The notes: generated from the sequence alone by a model not told the origin. A DNA stretch of 64,000 nt from Arcobacteraceae bacterium (GCA_963662945.1 OY759974.1:2080001-2144000); one strand, 5' to 3'; shown: positions 47,709-55,098, numbered from the stretch's first letter. Numbers and translations are program-made.

Positions 47709-48668
47709 TCAATCTCCGTCCGCATCCAAGATTTTTGCTGTAACTTTTAACTCATCAATAAGTGAAATATAATAAGCTATATGAAGTTTTTTAAGATTTT
47801 CATATAACTCTTGCGTGTGTGTTAAATCATCATTTTTTATCTTGGCTGTATTTTTCAAGGCATTATTGAGATACTGTGTAGTTTCTTTTAATACTTTTGT
47901 TGCACCATAATCTTGTAAAGTATCTCCAAAGTTTTTAAAACTTTGAGTATCAAGTACTCTTTTGTGTGTTTCAAGGATTGATTGAATTGCTAAAACACTA
48001 TTTTTACTTATAGTATATTCAGCCCTTGAATTATCTGGTTTGTTTTCATGTTTTTTTGTAAAACCAGCTGTATCTCCAACTCTCCACTCGGTAAGTTTAT
48101 AAGAGTTTTCACTCAAAGAGTTTAATATAATAGCATTTGCTTTAAGTTCATTTTTTATAAATTTTTCTTTTTGTTGTAAATATCCATTATAAATCTCAGT
48201 AAGATTGTTTTCCATGGTTTGTAAAATAATAAGTGTAATATCTTTTATTCTTTGATTATGAAGATTTTTTGTAAATAAGATATATTCTAAAGCATTGATA
48301 GTTTTATGTGAGTTTTTATACAAACTTATTTTTAAATCCTCAGAGCTAGCTATAATCAAATCAAGTTGTTCTTTTATATCTTCATTGCCTTGATGAAAAG
48401 TATCTAAATATCTTGGTGTATCTAGATAGTTTTCATCTAAATCTCCCAAGATATAAAAGGCTTCTATGCTTTTCCAACTTTTTACAATATTTTTAAAATC
48501 ATTTTGTACCATACCGAAGTTATCTTGTTTGATATGTTTTTGTAAAGTTTTTACATCTTCTATACTTTGTTTACTATTTTTTAAAATAACATTGTCATAC
48601 AAAGAGATTAAGTTCTCATTTGCAAATAGTGTATTTAGTAAAAATACAACTCCTAATATCCATCTCAT
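47709..48668 (-). CDS. imelysin-family protein
   Basis: Helical exported protein, KTINALEY, terminal DADGD. Confidence 0.8.
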   Translation of the reverse strand: MRWILGVVFLLNTLFANENLISLYDNVILKNSKQSIEDVKTLQKHIKQDNFGMVQNDFKNIVKSWKSIEAFYILGDLDENYLDTPRYLDTFHQGNEDIKEQLDLIIASSEDLKISLYKNSHKTINALEYILFTKNLHNQRIKDITLIILQTMENNLTEIYNGYLQQKEKFIKNELKANAIILNSLSENSYKLTEWRVGDTAGFTKKHENKPDNSRAEYTISKNSVLAIQSILETHKRVLDTQSFKNFGDTLQDYGATKVLKETTQYLNNALKNTAKIKNDDLTHTQELYENLKKLHIAYYISLIDELKVTAKILDADGD

Positions 48669-50069
48669 CTATAATTCCTTTATATAGTTTATAATTTTAT
48701 TTCGTTGATTTTCGGTTAAGCTCATAAAATCATTTTTGATTTGTAAAGCTTCGCCTGCGTGCCATAAAATAGCTTCTTCAATAGTTTTTGCTCTTCCATC
48801 ATGTAAAAATTCAGGTTCTTTCCCTAAAGTTAATTTATGTTTTCCTATTCCCCAAAGTGGAGCAGTTCTCCATTCATTTTTATTTGCTTTGAACTCCACT
48901 CTTCCATCACTTAAACCTTCACCCATATCGTGCAGTAACATATCTGTAAATGGTTTTATCACATAGCCAGAGTTCAGAGTATACGAAGGGATATGGCACT
49001 TTACACAACCAATTTGTGCAAAAAGTTTTTCCCCTTCAAGTTCTGTTATAGTTGATTTTGGAATTTTTAAATTTTTTAAATAAAATGCAATAGATTCCAG
49101 TCTATGCATTGGCAAATCAAAAGGTGTGCCAGCTCTTAATGTATCTCCTTTTGGAGCTTTGAGACAATTTTCTTGGGAGCTTGTACAGTTCTCATTTGGG
49201 AATAGGGGAGTTGTGAGACTCATATCATTATGGGCTGCTGCTGCACTTTGGTGTATCACTGATGGTGCTGAAGCTTTATAAGTATATCTTCCAACTTTAA
49301 AAGTTTTTTCAGATGGACTATAGACAATATTTGCTTTTCCTGATATTCCATCATTATTTTTATCTTCTATATCTTCATTTTTTAAGATTTGTTCATCGCT
49401 TAATTGTTCTAAAAGTCCCAAACCTAGAAGGGCAGGGGCAAGTCTAGAAGATAGTGAAACTTTTTCATTCATCTTTCCATAGTTTAAATGGGTAAGTTGA
49501 TTTTCAACTCCATGAAATGGTTGTTTTAGTGTAACTATTTTTCCATCTGGATAGGTTACTTTGATATCTTTATATGCTATAAGTGGCTTTGCTTCAAAAG
49601 GTACATCTTGTGAACCATTGATACTTATTTGTGAACCATAGGTTTCTTCACTTACAAAACCATTGTATTTGAGCATATCTTGATGTTGTTTTGAACCATT
49701 TGAGGGAATTGAAACTCTTAATATATATGATCTTGATATAGAACCATTTTCATTATAAAGTGAGCCTTTGCCATTTTTTGGATGACAGCTAATACAGGTA
49801 TTTGCATTGAAAAGTGGACCTAGTCCATCTCTTGCAGTTGTAGCACTTGGTGCTTCTACCCAAGGGATTCTATAAAAACTTTTTCCTTCTATAAACTTAT
49901 CTATTTGTTCATCATTTAAACCTGAGACTTGTTGTGAAAAAATATTTTTAGAAGAGTTTGTTGTTGTATAAATCTTATCAAGTTTTTCTTGTATTGTTTC
50001 ATTTGATAGAAGTGCAGTGGTAAAAACCACTGTACTTAAAAGAAAACTATATTTTAGTTTCTTCTGCAT
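48669..50069 (-). CDS. di-haem oxidoreductase (DHOR/DUF1111)
   Basis: ARDGLGPLFNANTCISCH, CVKCH, LLHDMG, EWRTAPLWG, LHDGRA. Confidence 0.93.
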   Translation of the reverse strand: MQKKLKYSFLLSTVVFTTALLSNETIQEKLDKIYTTTNSSKNIFSQQVSGLNDEQIDKFIEGKSFYRIPWVEAPSATTARDGLGPLFNANTCISCHPKNGKGSLYNENGSISRSYILRVSIPSNGSKQHQDMLKYNGFVSEETYGSQISINGSQDVPFEAKPLIAYKDIKVTYPDGKIVTLKQPFHGVENQLTHLNYGKMNEKVSLSSRLAPALLGLGLLEQLSDEQILKNEDIEDKNNDGISGKANIVYSPSEKTFKVGRYTYKASAPSVIHQSAAAAHNDMSLTTPLFPNENCTSSQENCLKAPKGDTLRAGTPFDLPMHRLESIAFYLKNLKIPKSTITELEGEKLFAQIGCVKCHIPSYTLNSGYVIKPFTDMLLHDMGEGLSDGRVEFKANKNEWRTAPLWGIGKHKLTLGKEPEFLHDGRAKTIEEAILWHAGEALQIKNDFMSLTENQRNKIINYIKEL

Positions 50070-51384
50070 CTGTTACATCTTCAACTGATAATTTGATACC
50101 ATTTGCACCAGCAATATCTACCATTTTATCACCTAATTTTCGTAATTCATTTTTTAGTTTTACGATTACTTTAGCTTGTGGATCAGTTGGATGAATCTGA
50201 TAATCAAAATGTCTACTTGTTTGAGCAATTGCATTGATTGATTCAATTTTAGATTCAATTTGACCTAAAAGTTCTAGTATCTCTTTTTTAGCTTCAACAG
50301 ACAAAGCATCTATAGGAGCTGTTCCATAATCTACACCTTTATATGTTCCCATAAGAAGATTTTTAAATCCTTGATAGTTTGTAGCAATATCTCTATGAGT
50401 ATTATCACTAAAACAACTATGCTCATCCTCTTCACTAGGAGTTAAAACAGCAACTGCAATTCTTTCATTTGCTAGTTCTGATTTTATAAATACACCCATC
50501 CCTGCAAAAATTTGTTTTAAGGCTTCATTTTGAGCAATGTTTTTTGAACTATCACTATTTATTCCTAATATTGCAGCTCTATAGTTTGTCATATCTCCTG
50601 TTTTCCAAGCATCTGAAATGATTGTTAAATCATCAACAATTTTTTGAGCACTAGCTTTTAGGTAAGCTAATCTTCTCTGTGCATTTTTATCTGTAGTAAA
50701 GTCACTTAAAGGTCGCTGACCTGCAGTTAAAGCACCTTTTGTAATTGAATCTTTTACAAAGTTACTATAATCTTGATCTTGTCCCCAAAGTAAAAATTCA
50801 ACAGCATGGTATCCTGTAGCTACATTTGCTTCCCCACCATTTTCATTAAGTGCTGTTATTGCATCAACTGTGATATTTGTCACATCTACACTTGAACTTC
50901 CTTCACCACCTGGGTTGAATTTACCTTTTGTATCTATGATATTTCCTGATGTTTTAGCACCTTTTGCATCAATAGTATAATCAATCATATTTTCATCCAA
51001 TGGCCAAGCATTGATTTGTCCCTCTAGTGCACCATAAGTTTCTGCTACCCAACCTTCTTCTGCATCAATAGGACCATTAGAAAGTCTAAAAGCTTCAGTT
51101 AAACCATAAGATTCTCTAGAGATTAACCAAGCGGCTTTTGCTTCCACTAAAGTATCTTCTGTTGGATTTGCTGTGAATTTATCAATAGCTATTTGTAAAA
51201 GTTTTGCATCATTTAAGGCATCTTTATAGTTGTCTTTAGCAATATTTGCATAAGTTTCTAACAGTGATGGTTCATTTTGTATTTTGGCAGTTGATGGATT
51301 ATTTCCAGTACAACCACTTAAAGCTAAAATAGCAGCAAAGCTTAGTCCTGTAATCATTGTTTTTGTTGTTTTTATCATCATCAT
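50047..51384 (-). CDS. imelysin/IrpA-like iron-regulated lipoprotein
   Basis: Lipobox LSGC, INAWPLDE, GYHAVEFLLWGQD, EDEHSCFSDNT. Confidence 0.93.
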   Translation of the reverse strand: MMMIKTTKTMITGLSFAAILALSGCTGNNPSTAKIQNEPSLLETYANIAKDNYKDALNDAKLLQIAIDKFTANPTEDTLVEAKAAWLISRESYGLTEAFRLSNGPIDAEEGWVAETYGALEGQINAWPLDENMIDYTIDAKGAKTSGNIIDTKGKFNPGGEGSSSVDVTNITVDAITALNENGGEANVATGYHAVEFLLWGQDQDYSNFVKDSITKGALTAGQRPLSDFTTDKNAQRRLAYLKASAQKIVDDLTIISDAWKTGDMTNYRAAILGINSDSSKNIAQNEALKQIFAGMGVFIKSELANERIAVAVLTPSEEDEHSCFSDNTHRDIATNYQGFKNLLMGTYKGVDYGTAPIDALSVEAKKEILELLGQIESKIESINAIAQTSRHFDYQIHPTDPQAKVIVKLKNELRKLGDKMVDIAGANGIKLSVEDVTDAEETKI

Positions 51385-51389
51385 TCCTT

Positions 51390-51884
51390 TTATTTTGAGA
51401 CTAAAAAGCCAATTTCTTTATCAATTATATGTAAACCGCGACCCTCTAAACCTACAATATCCATCTTGTCAAGGATACCTTTGAATAGCGCTTCTTCTTC
51501 ATGTTGTTCACTTAAATACCATTGAAGAAAGTTAAATGTTGCATAATCTTTTTGTTCTAAAGTTAATTCAACTAATTCATTGATTCTACTTGTAATAAAA
51601 AGTTCATGTTTATATGTTTTTTCAAATACATCTTTAATATCTTTAAAAACAGTATCAGGAGCATCAATACCTGAAATAACCGCTTGTGAACCTGTTTCGT
51701 TGATATAATTGAATAACTTATACATATGTCCTAATTCTTCTTTTGAATGATCTGCTAGAAATTTTGCAGCACCATCTAGACCTTGTGCTTTACACCAAGA
51801 TGACATCGAAAGATATAAGTTTGAAGAGAAATGCTCCAAATTTATTTGATGATTTAATTTATCTAATACCTCTTTTTTTAACAT
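51390..51884 (-). CDS. ftnA: non-haem ferritin
   Basis: QINLEHFSSNLYLSM, EELGH, HELFIT, FLQWYLSEQHEEE. Confidence 0.96.
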   Translation of the reverse strand: MLKKEVLDKLNHQINLEHFSSNLYLSMSSWCKAQGLDGAAKFLADHSKEELGHMYKLFNYINETGSQAVISGIDAPDTVFKDIKDVFEKTYKHELFITSRINELVELTLEQKDYATFNFLQWYLSEQHEEEALFKGILDKMDIVGLEGRGLHIIDKEIGFLVSK

Positions 51885-51912
51885 TGGATTTTCCTTTATT
51901 TATGTTATAATA

Positions 51913-51979
51913 AAGTTCAATATTTTATTGAACACCACAAGTTAAAGATGTGTAGTTTGGCGGCTTACATCTTTAACTT
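51913..51979 (-). repeat. two-hairpin element, copy B (between porin and ferritin)
   Basis: GTTCAATA-TTT-TATTGAAC plus AAGTTAAAGATGT...ACATCTTTAACTT; homologous to 53137-53199. Confidence 0.85.
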
Positions 51980-51987
51980 TTTTTATT

Positions 51988-53097
51988 TTAGAAACTGTAA
52001 ACTAACTGTGCACTATAATAAGTACTATCATCGTTTGCAACATGAGCATCAATATCAGCAAATATTAAACTCACTGTAAAATTTTTATATAATTCTTTAT
52101 CAATTGTAAAGTTAAACTCTTTTTCTGTTTCGTCTACAGTTCCATTTTTATAGTCTGTTGAACCATAAATTGCTCCAAAATCAAATCCTGCTACACTATA
52201 GTTTGCACCTATATAGTAAGTATCAGCATCAGTTCCATAAACTTGATTTCCACTATCTAATGGATTGATATTTTCACCTAAAGCCTCAAGAGTACCAATT
52301 CCTCCATCTTTATCTGTAGTGATATATCCTGCATTGACACCAAATGTATCGTTTGCGTAACTTAAATCTACAGCAGCAATATTACCATCTACAGTTCCTG
52401 CAACATCTTCATCTGTTGTAGTGTATTTAGCAATAGCACCAAAACCATTCATATTAAAATCAATTTTCCCACCAACTGCACTAAATGTATCTTTAGCATC
52501 CATATAGTATGCACCTAATGCTAAATTATCATTGATTGTATAAGTTGCATCTATTACATAAGCACCATCACCATTTGTACCAATATCAGAAAACTTGTAA
52601 AGTGCTTCATCATTTGCACTTGCACTTACTTTATCAGTATAACCTACGATTAAAGTAGTATTTGGAATTGCAGTTATAACTCCAACAGCAGCTTCATGGT
52701 AGTCCGATATCCATTCTAAATCAATCTCTTGTCTACCAAGTGTAAGTGAAAACACATCATTTGCATATCCTACATTTGCAATATTTAACAATGCTTTTGG
52801 AACATCTCTACCATCTTCATAATCACCATTTTCTTTTTCATCAAGTTCAGTACTTGACATAAATCCAACAGCTGCTTTAAATCCATTAAGTGTATCTGTT
52901 TCATAGTTTATGTTGATATGTCCTAGACTATATCCACTGTCAGGTGTAGTTCCACCATTGTCGTTACTTACAGTATACGCTGAAATTTCTCCACTTGTTT
53001 TTCCATTTTTAAATGCATCTTCTAAAGTATTGCTATCAGCTACTAAATTACTTGTAAGTAATGCTGCTGTTAATATGCTTAAGTTGATTTTTTTCAT
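51988..53097 (-). CDS. Opr/OprD-like outer-membrane porin
   Basis: Signal peptide, LEDAFKNGKTSGE, GRQEIDLEW, terminal YSF. Confidence 0.88.
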   Translation of the reverse strand: MKKINLSILTAALLTSNLVADSNTLEDAFKNGKTSGEISAYTVSNDNGGTTPDSGYSLGHININYETDTLNGFKAAVGFMSSTELDEKENGDYEDGRDVPKALLNIANVGYANDVFSLTLGRQEIDLEWISDYHEAAVGVITAIPNTTLIVGYTDKVSASANDEALYKFSDIGTNGDGAYVIDATYTINDNLALGAYYMDAKDTFSAVGGKIDFNMNGFGAIAKYTTTDEDVAGTVDGNIAAVDLSYANDTFGVNAGYITTDKDGGIGTLEALGENINPLDSGNQVYGTDADTYYIGANYSVAGFDFGAIYGSTDYKNGTVDETEKEFNFTIDKELYKNFTVSLIFADIDAHVANDDSTYYSAQLVYSF

Positions 53098-53136
53098 TTG
53101 ATTCTCTTTCCTTTTATATCAATTCATCGATTTTGT

Positions 53137-53199
53137 AAGTTCAATATTTTATTGAACGCCATTATTAAAGATATGTAATTTGACGGCTGTATCTTTAAT
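53137..53199 (-). repeat. two-hairpin element, copy A (upstream of porin)
   Basis: GTTCAATA-TTT-TATTGAAC plus ATTAAAGATA...TATCTTTAAT. Confidence 0.85.
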
Positions 53200-53221
53200 G
53201 TGTGAAATTTCCCTTTTTGAT

Positions 53222-53311
53222 TTAATTAGTAAGGTGTTTATGTCTATAATGAATTCCATTTACCTTTGAATTTTTTTTAAGAAAATTAAAAAACTGTCGT
53301 AAAAAGTTCAT
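53222..53311 (-). CDS. unannotated 29-aa small ORF / leader peptide
   Basis: AGAAAGGAG RBS 9 nt before ATG; MNFLRQFFNFLKKNSKVNGIHYRHKHLTN*. Confidence 0.6.
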   Translation of the reverse strand: MNFLRQFFNFLKKNSKVNGIHYRHKHLTN

Positions 53312-53361
53312 AACAATTAACTCCTTTCTAATTAAATTAAACAATGAAATTATAATTATAT

Positions 53362-53433
53362 TAATATTCATTATCAATATGAAATCTTATTATAAATATT
53401 CTTAATTATTTCTTATATTGATAGTTATTATCA
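53362..53433. promoter_or_regulatory. Fur boxes in the divergent porin/CDF promoter
   Basis: TGATAGT-T-ATTATCA (53419-53433) and TAATATT-C-ATTATCA (53362-53376) versus consensus TGATAAT-N-ATTATCA. Confidence 0.75.
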
Positions 53434-53549
53434 GTATTATTAAAATATTTATATCAATTTAAGTTAGAAATATATACTATACCTAGAATTTAGACTTATT
53501 GGAATACTAGTAGCATATAGTATTTTATATAATAACAGAGGAAAATATA

Positions 53550-54509
53550 ATGGAAAGTTGTAATTTTGGTTTAAATGAACATAAACCTTTTTTCAAAGAA
53601 GAGATGCACCATCACCATCATCATGAACATCACCATGGAGAACATACACATCATCACGAACATTCACACGATCATAGAGGTACAGACAAAAAAGTATTGA
53701 AAATTGCATTAACTATAACTTTTATTACAATGCTTGCTGAGTTTTTTTATGGTTTTTTATCACATTCTTTAGCACTGATTTCTGATGCTATACATATGTT
53801 TACACACTCATTTGCACTTATTATTTCACTTGTTGCAATTATTATTGCAAGTAAAGAAGCACCATTAGAGAAAACATTTGGATATTATAGAGCAGAAGTT
53901 CTTGCTGCATTTATAAATGGAATCACTATTATACTTTCGATTGTATGGATTTTATATGAAGCAGTTGATAGGTTTTTAAATCCACAAACCATAGATATAA
54001 AAACTGCAATGATTGTGGCTGTCATAGGACTTGTAGTAAATATTATTACAGGTGTTATTTTGATGCAAGGGGATAAAGATAATATCAATCTTAAATCTGC
54101 ATTTGTTCATATGTTAAGTGATGCTTTATCTTCAGTTGCGATTATTATTGGATATATTGTTATATCTTTTACAAATTGGTATTTTATAGATGTTATATTA
54201 GCTGTATTGGTTGCTTTTGTTATTGGAAGATGGGCTGTTGATGTTTTAAAACATTCTATCAATACTTTAATGGAAAGTTCCCCTATAGATATAGAAGAGG
54301 TAAAACAGTATATTGAGCAACATAAAGAGGTAATCGAGTTACACGATGTACATATTTGGGAGATAACACAAGATATGTATAATATGACAGCACATGTGAA
54401 GATTGAAAAAAGTTCTTTAGAAAATTATGAAGAGCTTTTAAAACAGTTAAACAATCAATTACAAGAGAAGTTTAAAATTGTACATACTACCTTTCAGTTT
54501 GAATGGTAG
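53550..54509 (+). CDS. CDF (CzcD/ZitB-like) metal transporter
   Basis: His-rich N-terminus, SLALISDAIHM, TFGYYRAE, HMLSD, LHDVHIW, HTTFQFE. Confidence 0.95.
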   Translation: MESCNFGLNEHKPFFKEEMHHHHHHEHHHGEHTHHHEHSHDHRGTDKKVLKIALTITFITMLAEFFYGFLSHSLALISDAIHMFTHSFALIISLVAIIIASKEAPLEKTFGYYRAEVLAAFINGITIILSIVWILYEAVDRFLNPQTIDIKTAMIVAVIGLVVNIITGVILMQGDKDNINLKSAFVHMLSDALSSVAIIIGYIVISFTNWYFIDVILAVLVAFVIGRWAVDVLKHSINTLMESSPIDIEEVKQYIEQHKEVIELHDVHIWEITQDMYNMTAHVKIEKSSLENYEELLKQLNNQLQEKFKIVHTTFQFEW

Positions 54510-54519
54510 TATACTATTT

Positions 54520-54984
54520 TTATAATGATTTGTTTTGACAATTTTTACATATGCCATACAACATCATAGTATGGCTTTGAAGTAAAAAACCATTTTCTAT
54601 TGCCACGAGTTCTTGTATTTTTTCAACTTCAGCATCATAAAACTCAACAATTTTTCCACACTCCACACATACCATATGGTCATGATGAGAGGTCAGTGTT
54701 AATTCATAAACTTTACTTTCAAAACCATCTATGGATATCCCTGTGACCGTATTAAGTTCTTCAAGTAAATTTAGAATTCTATAAACAGTTGCAATTCCAA
54801 TATTTATATTATAAGTACTTTTGACTCTTTTTGCCACATCTTCAGCACTAATATGTTTATCACAATCAAATAATATTTTTAATACATATTCTCTTTGATT
54901 TGAATTATTTAATCCTAATGATTTAATAGTTCTTCTAAATTTTAATATATATTCATCATAAGATACTGTTAAATTTTTTTTCAT
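54520..54984 (-). CDS. fur: Fur-family regulator
   Basis: IATVYRIL, HHDHMVCVECG, YGICKNC; ATG 54984 follows AAAGG. Confidence 0.88.
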   Translation of the reverse strand: MKKNLTVSYDEYILKFRRTIKSLGLNNSNQREYVLKILFDCDKHISAEDVAKRVKSTYNINIGIATVYRILNLLEELNTVTGISIDGFESKVYELTLTSHHDHMVCVECGKIVEFYDAEVEKIQELVAIENGFLLQSHTMMLYGICKNCQNKSL

Positions 54985-55030
54985 ATTGAAACCTTTAATA
55001 ATCATTCTAAAGTAAGTCAATTATCAATTG

Positions 55031-55098
55031 TGATAATTAATATCAAAATATTAACAGAGAGTAACTTTATTTAATCTTAATACTGATAATAGTTATCA
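55031..55098. promoter_or_regulatory. Fur boxes upstream of fur
   Basis: TGATAATTAATATCA (55031-55045) and TGATAATAGTTATCA (55084-55098). Confidence 0.75.

Follow-up and report, generated by a model that had tools for sequence, protein, structure and literature searches.

A conserved two-hairpin element in Fur-linked iron loci of Arcobacteraceae and its possible role as a cis-encoded antisense RNA

What is specified by a small paired element that stands in duplicate before the porin and the ferritin genes of a bacterial iron operon? The element was noticed in a 64,000-nt stretch of DNA from an Arcobacteraceae bacterium (GCA_963662945.1, OY759974.1:2080001-2144000), referred to here as the window. 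A sequence-only reading had described two copies of a two-hairpin motif and proposed a cis-acting post-transcriptional element of the mRNA, reminiscent of IRE logic or possibly an attenuator. The comparative analysis reported here indicates that the element is real, conserved, and structured, and the sequences make it a candidate for a new RNA family tied to iron loci. The paired stems, the low copy number, and the conservation at iron loci are all compatible with a cis-acting element of the mRNA; an antisense gene that has the mRNA-sense copy as its target is nevertheless the likelier reading. Nothing on this element was found in the open-access literature.

The two copies and the operon that carries them

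Both copies occur where they had been reported, copy A at 53137-53199 and copy B at 51913-51977 of the window, with the adjoining genes on the - strand (Table 1). In the sense of the mRNA each comprises a stem-loop with a 10-bp stem (hp1), a short linker, and a 7-5-7 palindrome (hp2). The hp1 stem of copy A pairs 53199-53190 with 53173-64 around a loop of 16 nt, and a 6-nt linker leads to the palindrome (53157-53139). Copy B repeats this layout (51977-51915) with a loop of 17 nt and a linker of 7 nt, and its hp1 loop acquires an extra inner stem through G.U pairs when read on the + strand. As the sequence-only reading had noted, at the outermost and innermost pairs of hp1 the A-U of copy A corresponds to G-C in copy B, both substitutions being compensated, and hp2 is identical; together with the next TT the identity extends over 21 of 21 positions, and 12 of the 45 aligned columns before hp2 differ. 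The duplicated unit ends sharply, at hp1 on one side and at hp2 plus TT on the other. Predicted RNA folds reach -11.8 kcal/mol for copy A (z -3.1) and -20.5 kcal/mol for copy B (z -5.2), with none of 200 shuffled sequences folding as well in either case. A distance of 22 nt separates the stop codon of a 29-codon ORF from copy A, and 39 nt lie between copy A and the ATG of the porin gene; for copy B the corresponding distances are 10 nt from the stop codon of the porin gene and 28 nt to the ATG of ferritin. The earlier description, which placed each copy just behind a stop and about 30-40 nt ahead of the following start, is thus approximately correct.

Table 1. Features of the porin-ferritin locus, in window coordinates
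Feature	Position	Strand	Remarks
Imelysin, di-haem oxidoreductase (DHOR), and imelysin-like genes	47709-51384	-	Rest of operon
Non-haem ferritin gene	51390-51884	-	
Extended -10 promoter TGTTATAAT (putative)	51903-51911	+	Opposite ferritin; faces the element
Copy B, hp2	51915-51933		7-bp arms, 5-nt loop
Predicted antisense small RNA, ~70-74 nt	51917-51989	+	Inferred 5' end 51916-51919; 3' end in T-tract
Copy B, hp1	51941-51977		10-bp stem, 17-nt loop
T-tract (7 T, A, 4 T)	51978-51989	+	Directly after hp1; terminator-like tail
Opr-family porin gene	51988-53097	-	
Copy A	53139-53199	-	hp1 53164-53199, hp2 53139-53157; porin mRNA leader
29-codon small ORF	53222-53311	-	AAAGGAG ribosome-binding site; between operon promoter and copy A
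Operon promoter-like site TTGATA-17-TATAAT	53349-53377	-	11/12 matches; overlapped by Fur-box-like site 53362-53376
Fur-box-like site	53419-53433		1 mismatch to TGATAATnATTATCA; divergent porin/CDF intergenic region
Fur-family regulator gene	54520-55020	-	

Fur-box sites with at most one mismatch number only three in the 64-kb window, and all belong to this locus; this clustering places the element in Fur-linked iron loci. Four Fur-box-like sites are recognizable here (53362-53376, 53419-53433, 55031-55045, and 55084-55098, the last three with 1 mismatch each), and they are distributed over the intergenic regions on the two sides of the CDF and Fur-family genes, one pair lying upstream of the Fur-family gene and downstream of a TonB-dependent receptor gene. 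The CDF-family cation efflux gene (53550-54509, + strand), with a histidine-rich N-terminus, is divergent from the porin-ferritin operon, and a Fur-box intergenic region is common to both. No Fur-box-like site with two or fewer mismatches was detected at copy A, at copy B, or at the putative antisense promoter described below.

A second genome of the same genus (G025, L010/L013) has an identical locus, comprising the Fur-family gene, CDF gene, Fur boxes, small ORF, element, ferritin, and imelysin, but the element is present only once and the porin is missing. The difference from the window would be accounted for if copies A and B had recombined or if the porin gene had been inserted along with a copy. 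In the window the porin is thus bracketed by direct repeats able to recombine.

Distribution and conservation of pairing

The exact 19-mer of the hp2 palindrome has only two sites in the 2,497,315-bp genome; the next-best site carries 2 mismatches, and a reversed-pattern control matches equally often at 3 mismatches. A covariance model was built first from three sequences and then rebuilt from 11, and in the whole genome the second-round model recovers copies A and B alone at E<0.2. A scan of positions 50000-55000 with the covariance models of Rfam 15 gave seven weak matches (E 1-6.9), none overlapping copy A or B, in line with the original statement that the element is not a known riboswitch. 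That statement had been accompanied by two findings that would speak against a regulatory RNA, namely many copies scattered through the genome or a lack of conservation at orthologous loci. A REP/MITE-type repeat is excluded by the two copies in 2.5 Mb and the one or two copies in each other positive genome, and the element is kept at related iron loci in other genera.

Relatives were sought in 184 species genomes of the Arcobacteraceae, 151 of them with the covariance model and a strict pattern and the remaining 33 with the strict pattern only, so that diverged copies in those 33 may have escaped. Clear covariance matches (E below 1e-4) were obtained in 9 of the 151 genomes, at 11 sites in three genera; within the genus of the window 6 of 28 genomes are positive. 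The strict pattern added no sites over all 184 genomes, and 151 sampled genomes from 26 families of the order yielded no credible match outside the family. A pattern scan of metagenomes returned 36 stretches, 9 of which match the model (three of these being identical), and a collection of species representatives returned 18 pattern stretches, 6 of which match it. Five of those 6 are titled Arcobacteraceae, Arcobacter, or Campylobacterota, and one comes from a Sulfurovum MAG. The pattern matches that fail the covariance model (27/36 and 12/18, respectively) were discarded, as were weak model matches inside a repetitive coding region (G037, G074), one lacking the features of the element (G288), and four judged false or unverified (L021-L024). 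With the exact duplicates L072 and L085 left out, the working set comprises 18 instances drawn from 9 of the 184 Arcobacteraceae genomes, the Sulfurovum MAG, and several metagenome contigs.

The element is oriented alike in all 18 instances, its end lying 28-41 nt ahead of the start codon of the gene that follows, and every one of these loci is linked to Fur. That gene codes for a porin (9 instances), an imelysin-family protein (5), a ferritin (3), or an LTXXQ-like periplasmic protein (1). On the upstream side a Fur-family gene is found directly or one gene further in 5 instances; DUF4198 genes (2), a TonB-dependent receptor gene (1), an OprD porin gene (1), and a ferritin gene (1) occur there as well. 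A homolog of the 29-codon small ORF precedes 8 of the 18 instances. The ORF of the window has a strong ribosome-binding site and no match in Pfam. Its homologs share a conserved K-x-N-S/T-K-I/V/L-N-G core, in which the N-G codons differ at synonymous third positions, suggesting that the micropeptide is real; the homolog of one metagenome contig overlaps the fur stop.

Selection on structure, claimed in the sequence-only reading from two copies, is borne out by the larger set, in which both stems covary. In the alignment fitted by the model 98.0% of 305 cells are paired and 11 of 17 pairs have changed on both sides; no shuffle among 500 reaches the observed score, and slid controls fall to 27-47% paired. 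Since a model-fitted alignment leans towards the structure, the count was redone on an independent MAFFT alignment, which on the antisense strand gives 98.4% of 322 cells paired and 6 of 18 pairs changed on both sides, again with a covariation score reached by none of 500 shuffles. The loop of hp1 spans 16-19 nt across instances and holds a conserved UCAAA core. The loop of hp2 measures 5, 7, 8, 11, 13, or ~31 nt, and its arms remain complementary throughout. The hp2 stem is 10-11 bp long in L094 and L086, where the loop is also larger, and in one genome both arms have shifted in step. Complementarity of the arms despite variable spacing points to selection on nucleic-acid pairing and argues against a DNA operator of fixed spacing.

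Several variations were also observed. In L018, L019, and L039 (G126, G006, and G076) the hp2 loop carries an insert of ~30 nt that forms a small hairpin of its own (CUCUC...GAGAG), with compensatory differences between the genomes. In L014 and L015 (G002 and G020) a purine-rich AAGGGAGG block lies ~20-30 nt upstream of hp1, and after it comes a sequence close to that of the hp1 3' arm (TCTTTAA), with which the hp1 5' arm could form an alternative hairpin; this arrangement is confined to these two sister genomes. An integron attC-like site was considered for the element as a whole and discarded, the core sites being in the wrong order.

A putative antisense promoter and the proposed antisense RNA

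Between hp2 and the Shine-Dalgarno region the instances share a conserved ATTATA-N-CA, that is, TG-N-TATAAT on the opposite strand. The sequence-only reading took the element on the mRNA strand and overlooked both this motif and a T-rich tail on the other side of the element. At copy B the site (TGTTATAAT) is flanked by hp2 and by the ribosome-binding site of ferritin, and it faces away from the ferritin gene. Copy A alone of the 18 instances lacks TATAAT; of the 17 that have it, 16 have TG as well. The motif keeps a fixed place, 3-5 nt before hp2, and its position n, which the promoter consensus leaves free, takes all four bases. In the genome of the window TGnTATAAT is rare (383 sites over the two strands; 0.077 per kb and strand). 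The sigma-70 consensus reported for Epsilonproteobacteria is an extended -10 motif with no -35 box (PMC3656092; PMC3847290), a motif assigned to ~89% of C. jejuni promoters in one account (PMC3656092) and placed 4-8 nt upstream of the TSS in another (PMC3847290). A role of hp2 as a -35 element was rejected on account of the wrong spacing. A second perfect TGnTATAAT occurs at window positions 51701-51709 (+ strand), inside the ferritin coding region and opposite N-Y-I-N codons; G025 has the same bases, and the motif may be an antisense promoter inside the gene or may result simply from codon conservation.

At the far end of the element at least 5 T are found in the first 8 nt past hp1 on the antisense strand in 13 of the 17 promoter-bearing instances. 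The hp1 loop is large for an intrinsic terminator, and a simple terminator scan made no call; the inner G.U stem shortens this loop on the antisense strand. Two weaker hints favor the antisense strand. It folds more stably in 15 of 18 instances, in part through the inner stem, a bias that is not significant alone and could simply reflect G+U-rich composition. Of the non-Watson-Crick cells, 10 are G.U if read on the antisense strand and 5 if read on the sense strand, and three of the latter belong to the outer two hp2 pairs, possibly upstream of the antisense TSS; in the core pairs the strand bias (~6 events against 2) is not significant. The predicted antisense RNA contains no conserved ORF in the instance sequences when compared by eye, and a peptide was dismissed, since some instances lack the ATG and the reading frames are not conserved.

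From the antisense promoter and the T-rich tail together, the element most likely forms the body of a gene for an antisense small RNA whose target is the copy in mRNA sense. The specific proposal, judged from the sequences to have about an even chance of being right, is a cis-encoded antisense RNA of ~70 nt that pairs with the mRNA leader. Its ends are predicted from the position of the promoter, the 4-8 nt between -10 and TSS, and the hairpin with its T-tract. Transcription of the + strand from TGTTATAAT would yield an RNA with hp2 as its 5' hairpin and hp1 plus the U-tail as its terminator, fully complementary to the - strand mRNA just upstream of the Shine-Dalgarno sequence. The target mRNA would originate at the Fur-box promoter (53349-53377) and cover the small ORF, porin, ferritin, imelysin, and DHOR genes. 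The antisense gene would thus be set head-to-head against an iron gene at its ribosome-binding site, and it would face the Fur-box promoter of the operon. Pairing with the leader or intercistronic region may then control the downstream cistron through duplex-dependent cleavage, blocked translation, or collision of converging polymerases. With Fur-box sense promoters upstream, the complementary leader is probably transcribed, and because both RNAs would have to fold into matching hairpins, the stems would be selected on both strands.

Copies A and B had been taken as equivalent; the antisense -10 and the T-tail are present at copy B only, and copy A has neither. Copy A, in the porin leader, would consequently serve as a target only. 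RNA made at copy B could reach it in trans through 21 nt of perfect complementarity at hp2, but as a putative trans target copy A is the weakest link of the antisense reading. Duplexes predicted with RNAduplex between the RNA and ~2,900 crude gene starts were only loose and uninformative, and a simple genome search found no further complementary sites for the loop and arm, with up to one mismatch, beyond the locus. Because the TSS is expected at the first bases of hp2 or within them, part of the hp2 stem may be untranscribed on the antisense strand.

A bolder and rather unlikely extension holds that promoter, two-hairpin antisense RNA, and ribosome-binding site form a portable sense/antisense cassette, a post-transcriptional regulator of iron loci in the Hfq-less Campylobacterota. 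If true, the cassette would be a functional counterpart of IsrR or RyhB that spread by duplication before porin, ferritin, and imelysin genes. Promoter-less copies such as copy A would serve as trans targets, which would let a single small RNA coordinate several cistrons of an operon under Fur control.

Sense-strand, DNA-level, and recombinational readings

The retention of both stems and of an identical hp2 in copy A, which has no antisense promoter, speaks for a function exerted by the mRNA or by the DNA. It is not explained by an antisense RNA alone and is the main argument for an mRNA-strand function. Such a function could be that of a purely sense-acting cis-regulatory RNA in which hp1 and hp2 work in the leader of the mRNA or between its cistrons, whether by binding a protein, by governing RNase processing or stability, or as an attenuator, the antisense -10 being incidental or a minor by-product. 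This reading is considered improbable, though it draws on the proximity to a start codon in a single orientation (18/18), which a free-standing small-RNA gene would not need and which therefore also counts against the antisense RNA. A U-rich run follows hp2 on the mRNA strand, and in several instances a weak third hairpin can pair CUUUAUU with the Shine-Dalgarno region, strongly in 2 of 18. In the predicted ensembles of 16 of the 18 instances, however, the Shine-Dalgarno sequence is mostly unpaired. There is no bias to sense-strand G.U pairs and no Rfam match, and the invariance of exactly the nine TGnTATAAT positions amid drifting flanks stays unexplained if only the sense strand matters. The attenuator of the sequence-only reading also loses ground, no mutually exclusive pairing having been found. 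A riboswitch or attenuator leader was rejected, since across the 18 instances the element amounts to two independent hairpins, with no support for an antiterminator, a pseudoknot, or a closing helix. G002 and G020 do not keep the pairing of the A-rich 5' flank with CUUUAUU that would close the element, and the hp1 loop finds no complement in hp2 with which to form a pseudoknot. Inspection gave no other antiterminator or pseudoknot pairing, and the hp1 loop was discarded as an antiterminator. The appeal to IRE logic does not hold either. An IRE has a six-nucleotide apical loop, CAGUGN, and an unpaired C in the upper stem. The present element resembles it in placing a hairpin 5' of a ferritin gene, but it has two hairpins, precedes porins and imelysins as well, and combines an uninterrupted 10-bp stem with a 16-19-nt loop that has neither CAGUGN nor a bulged C. 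Nothing links it to aconitase, and an aconitase-bound IRE-like element is not supported by these features.

A function in the DNA itself would take the form of a bidirectional promoter, from which ferritin and its counterparts receive a short-leader start of their own, with the palindromes as operators, for example of the neighboring Fur-family protein, and the divergent transcript as a by-product. A sense TATTAT does overlap the antisense TATAAT with a 1-bp offset, and it keeps A at -11 and T at -7 in 17 of 17 promoter-bearing instances, but it lacks TG and its first base is variable. A start ~17-20 nt before the ATG would fit the short 5'UTRs reported as common in Epsilonproteobacteria (PMC3656092). 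A Fur-family gene adjoins most loci, and a promoter of its own would benefit ferritin inside a Fur-repressed operon. The palindromes themselves speak against operators: hp2 half-sites stand from 5 to ~31 nt apart and are still complementary, the stems change by paired substitutions, and a dimer site of fixed geometry would not tolerate such changes in spacing. A Fur-family operator at the copies was accordingly rejected, hp2 being 7-5-7 rather than the 7-1-7 of Fur-family boxes resembling TGATAATnATTATCA, with variable spacing, and the Fur-box-like sites lying elsewhere in the locus and not, at two or fewer mismatches, at either copy. The DNA-level explanation is on this evidence doubtful, a little more so than a sense-only RNA. 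Far less credible is a functionless origin, in which the copies are direct repeats left as a recombination scar or mobile-element relic by insertion of the porin gene. The single copy without porin in G025 is the product expected of recombination between A and B, and the duplicated unit does end sharply. Single copies are nevertheless conserved in at least three Arcobacteraceae genera and a Sulfurovum, where they covary and keep the promoter, and this conservation across genera largely refutes the idea; genomes carry only one or two copies, and no transposase or terminal repeats were seen.

The antisense RNA, the reading preferred here, has its closest architectural counterparts among plasmid countertranscripts such as CopA/CopT of R1, RNAIII of pIP501, and RNAI of pT181. 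These are short antisense RNAs with two stem-loops and a U-tail, transcribed from a constitutive-looking promoter inside the target leader. The predicted RNA would share with them the two stem-loops, a terminator-like U-tail, a promoter facing that of the target, stems conserved on both strands, and recognition loops. A small leader ORF lies near the element, as tap does in R1, although here it is upstream of the target region and not downstream. Unlike the countertranscripts, the element is chromosomal, is located in iron-homeostasis operons before four gene families, has a loop of 16-19 nt as opposed to 6-8, and shows no terminator/antiterminator alternative. The closest system by theme is IsrR/isiA of Synechocystis, in which an iron-stress-repressed cis-antisense RNA is directed against an iron-regulated mRNA and could set a threshold of expression. 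IsrR lies inside the coding region, is much longer, and has no sequence or structural similarity to the element, whose putative antisense promoter has no Fur box. RyhB and PrrF are Fur-regulated, trans-acting small RNAs. The predicted RNA resembles them in its position in an iron locus beside fur and ferritin, and differs in the lack of a Fur box at its promoter, in always being in cis to a start codon, and in the absence of further complementary sites in the genome search. To our knowledge, no RyhB analogue or RyhB-like iron small RNA has been described in Epsilonproteobacteria. Members of this group are reported to lack Hfq (PMC3847290). A conserved, covarying antisense-RNA module beside fur, at the ribosome-binding sites of ferritin, porin, and imelysin genes, would give concrete and testable access to post-transcriptional iron control in the phylum, and it would represent a regulatory cassette that can be duplicated inside an operon, flanking in the window a porin gene that a sister genome lacks.
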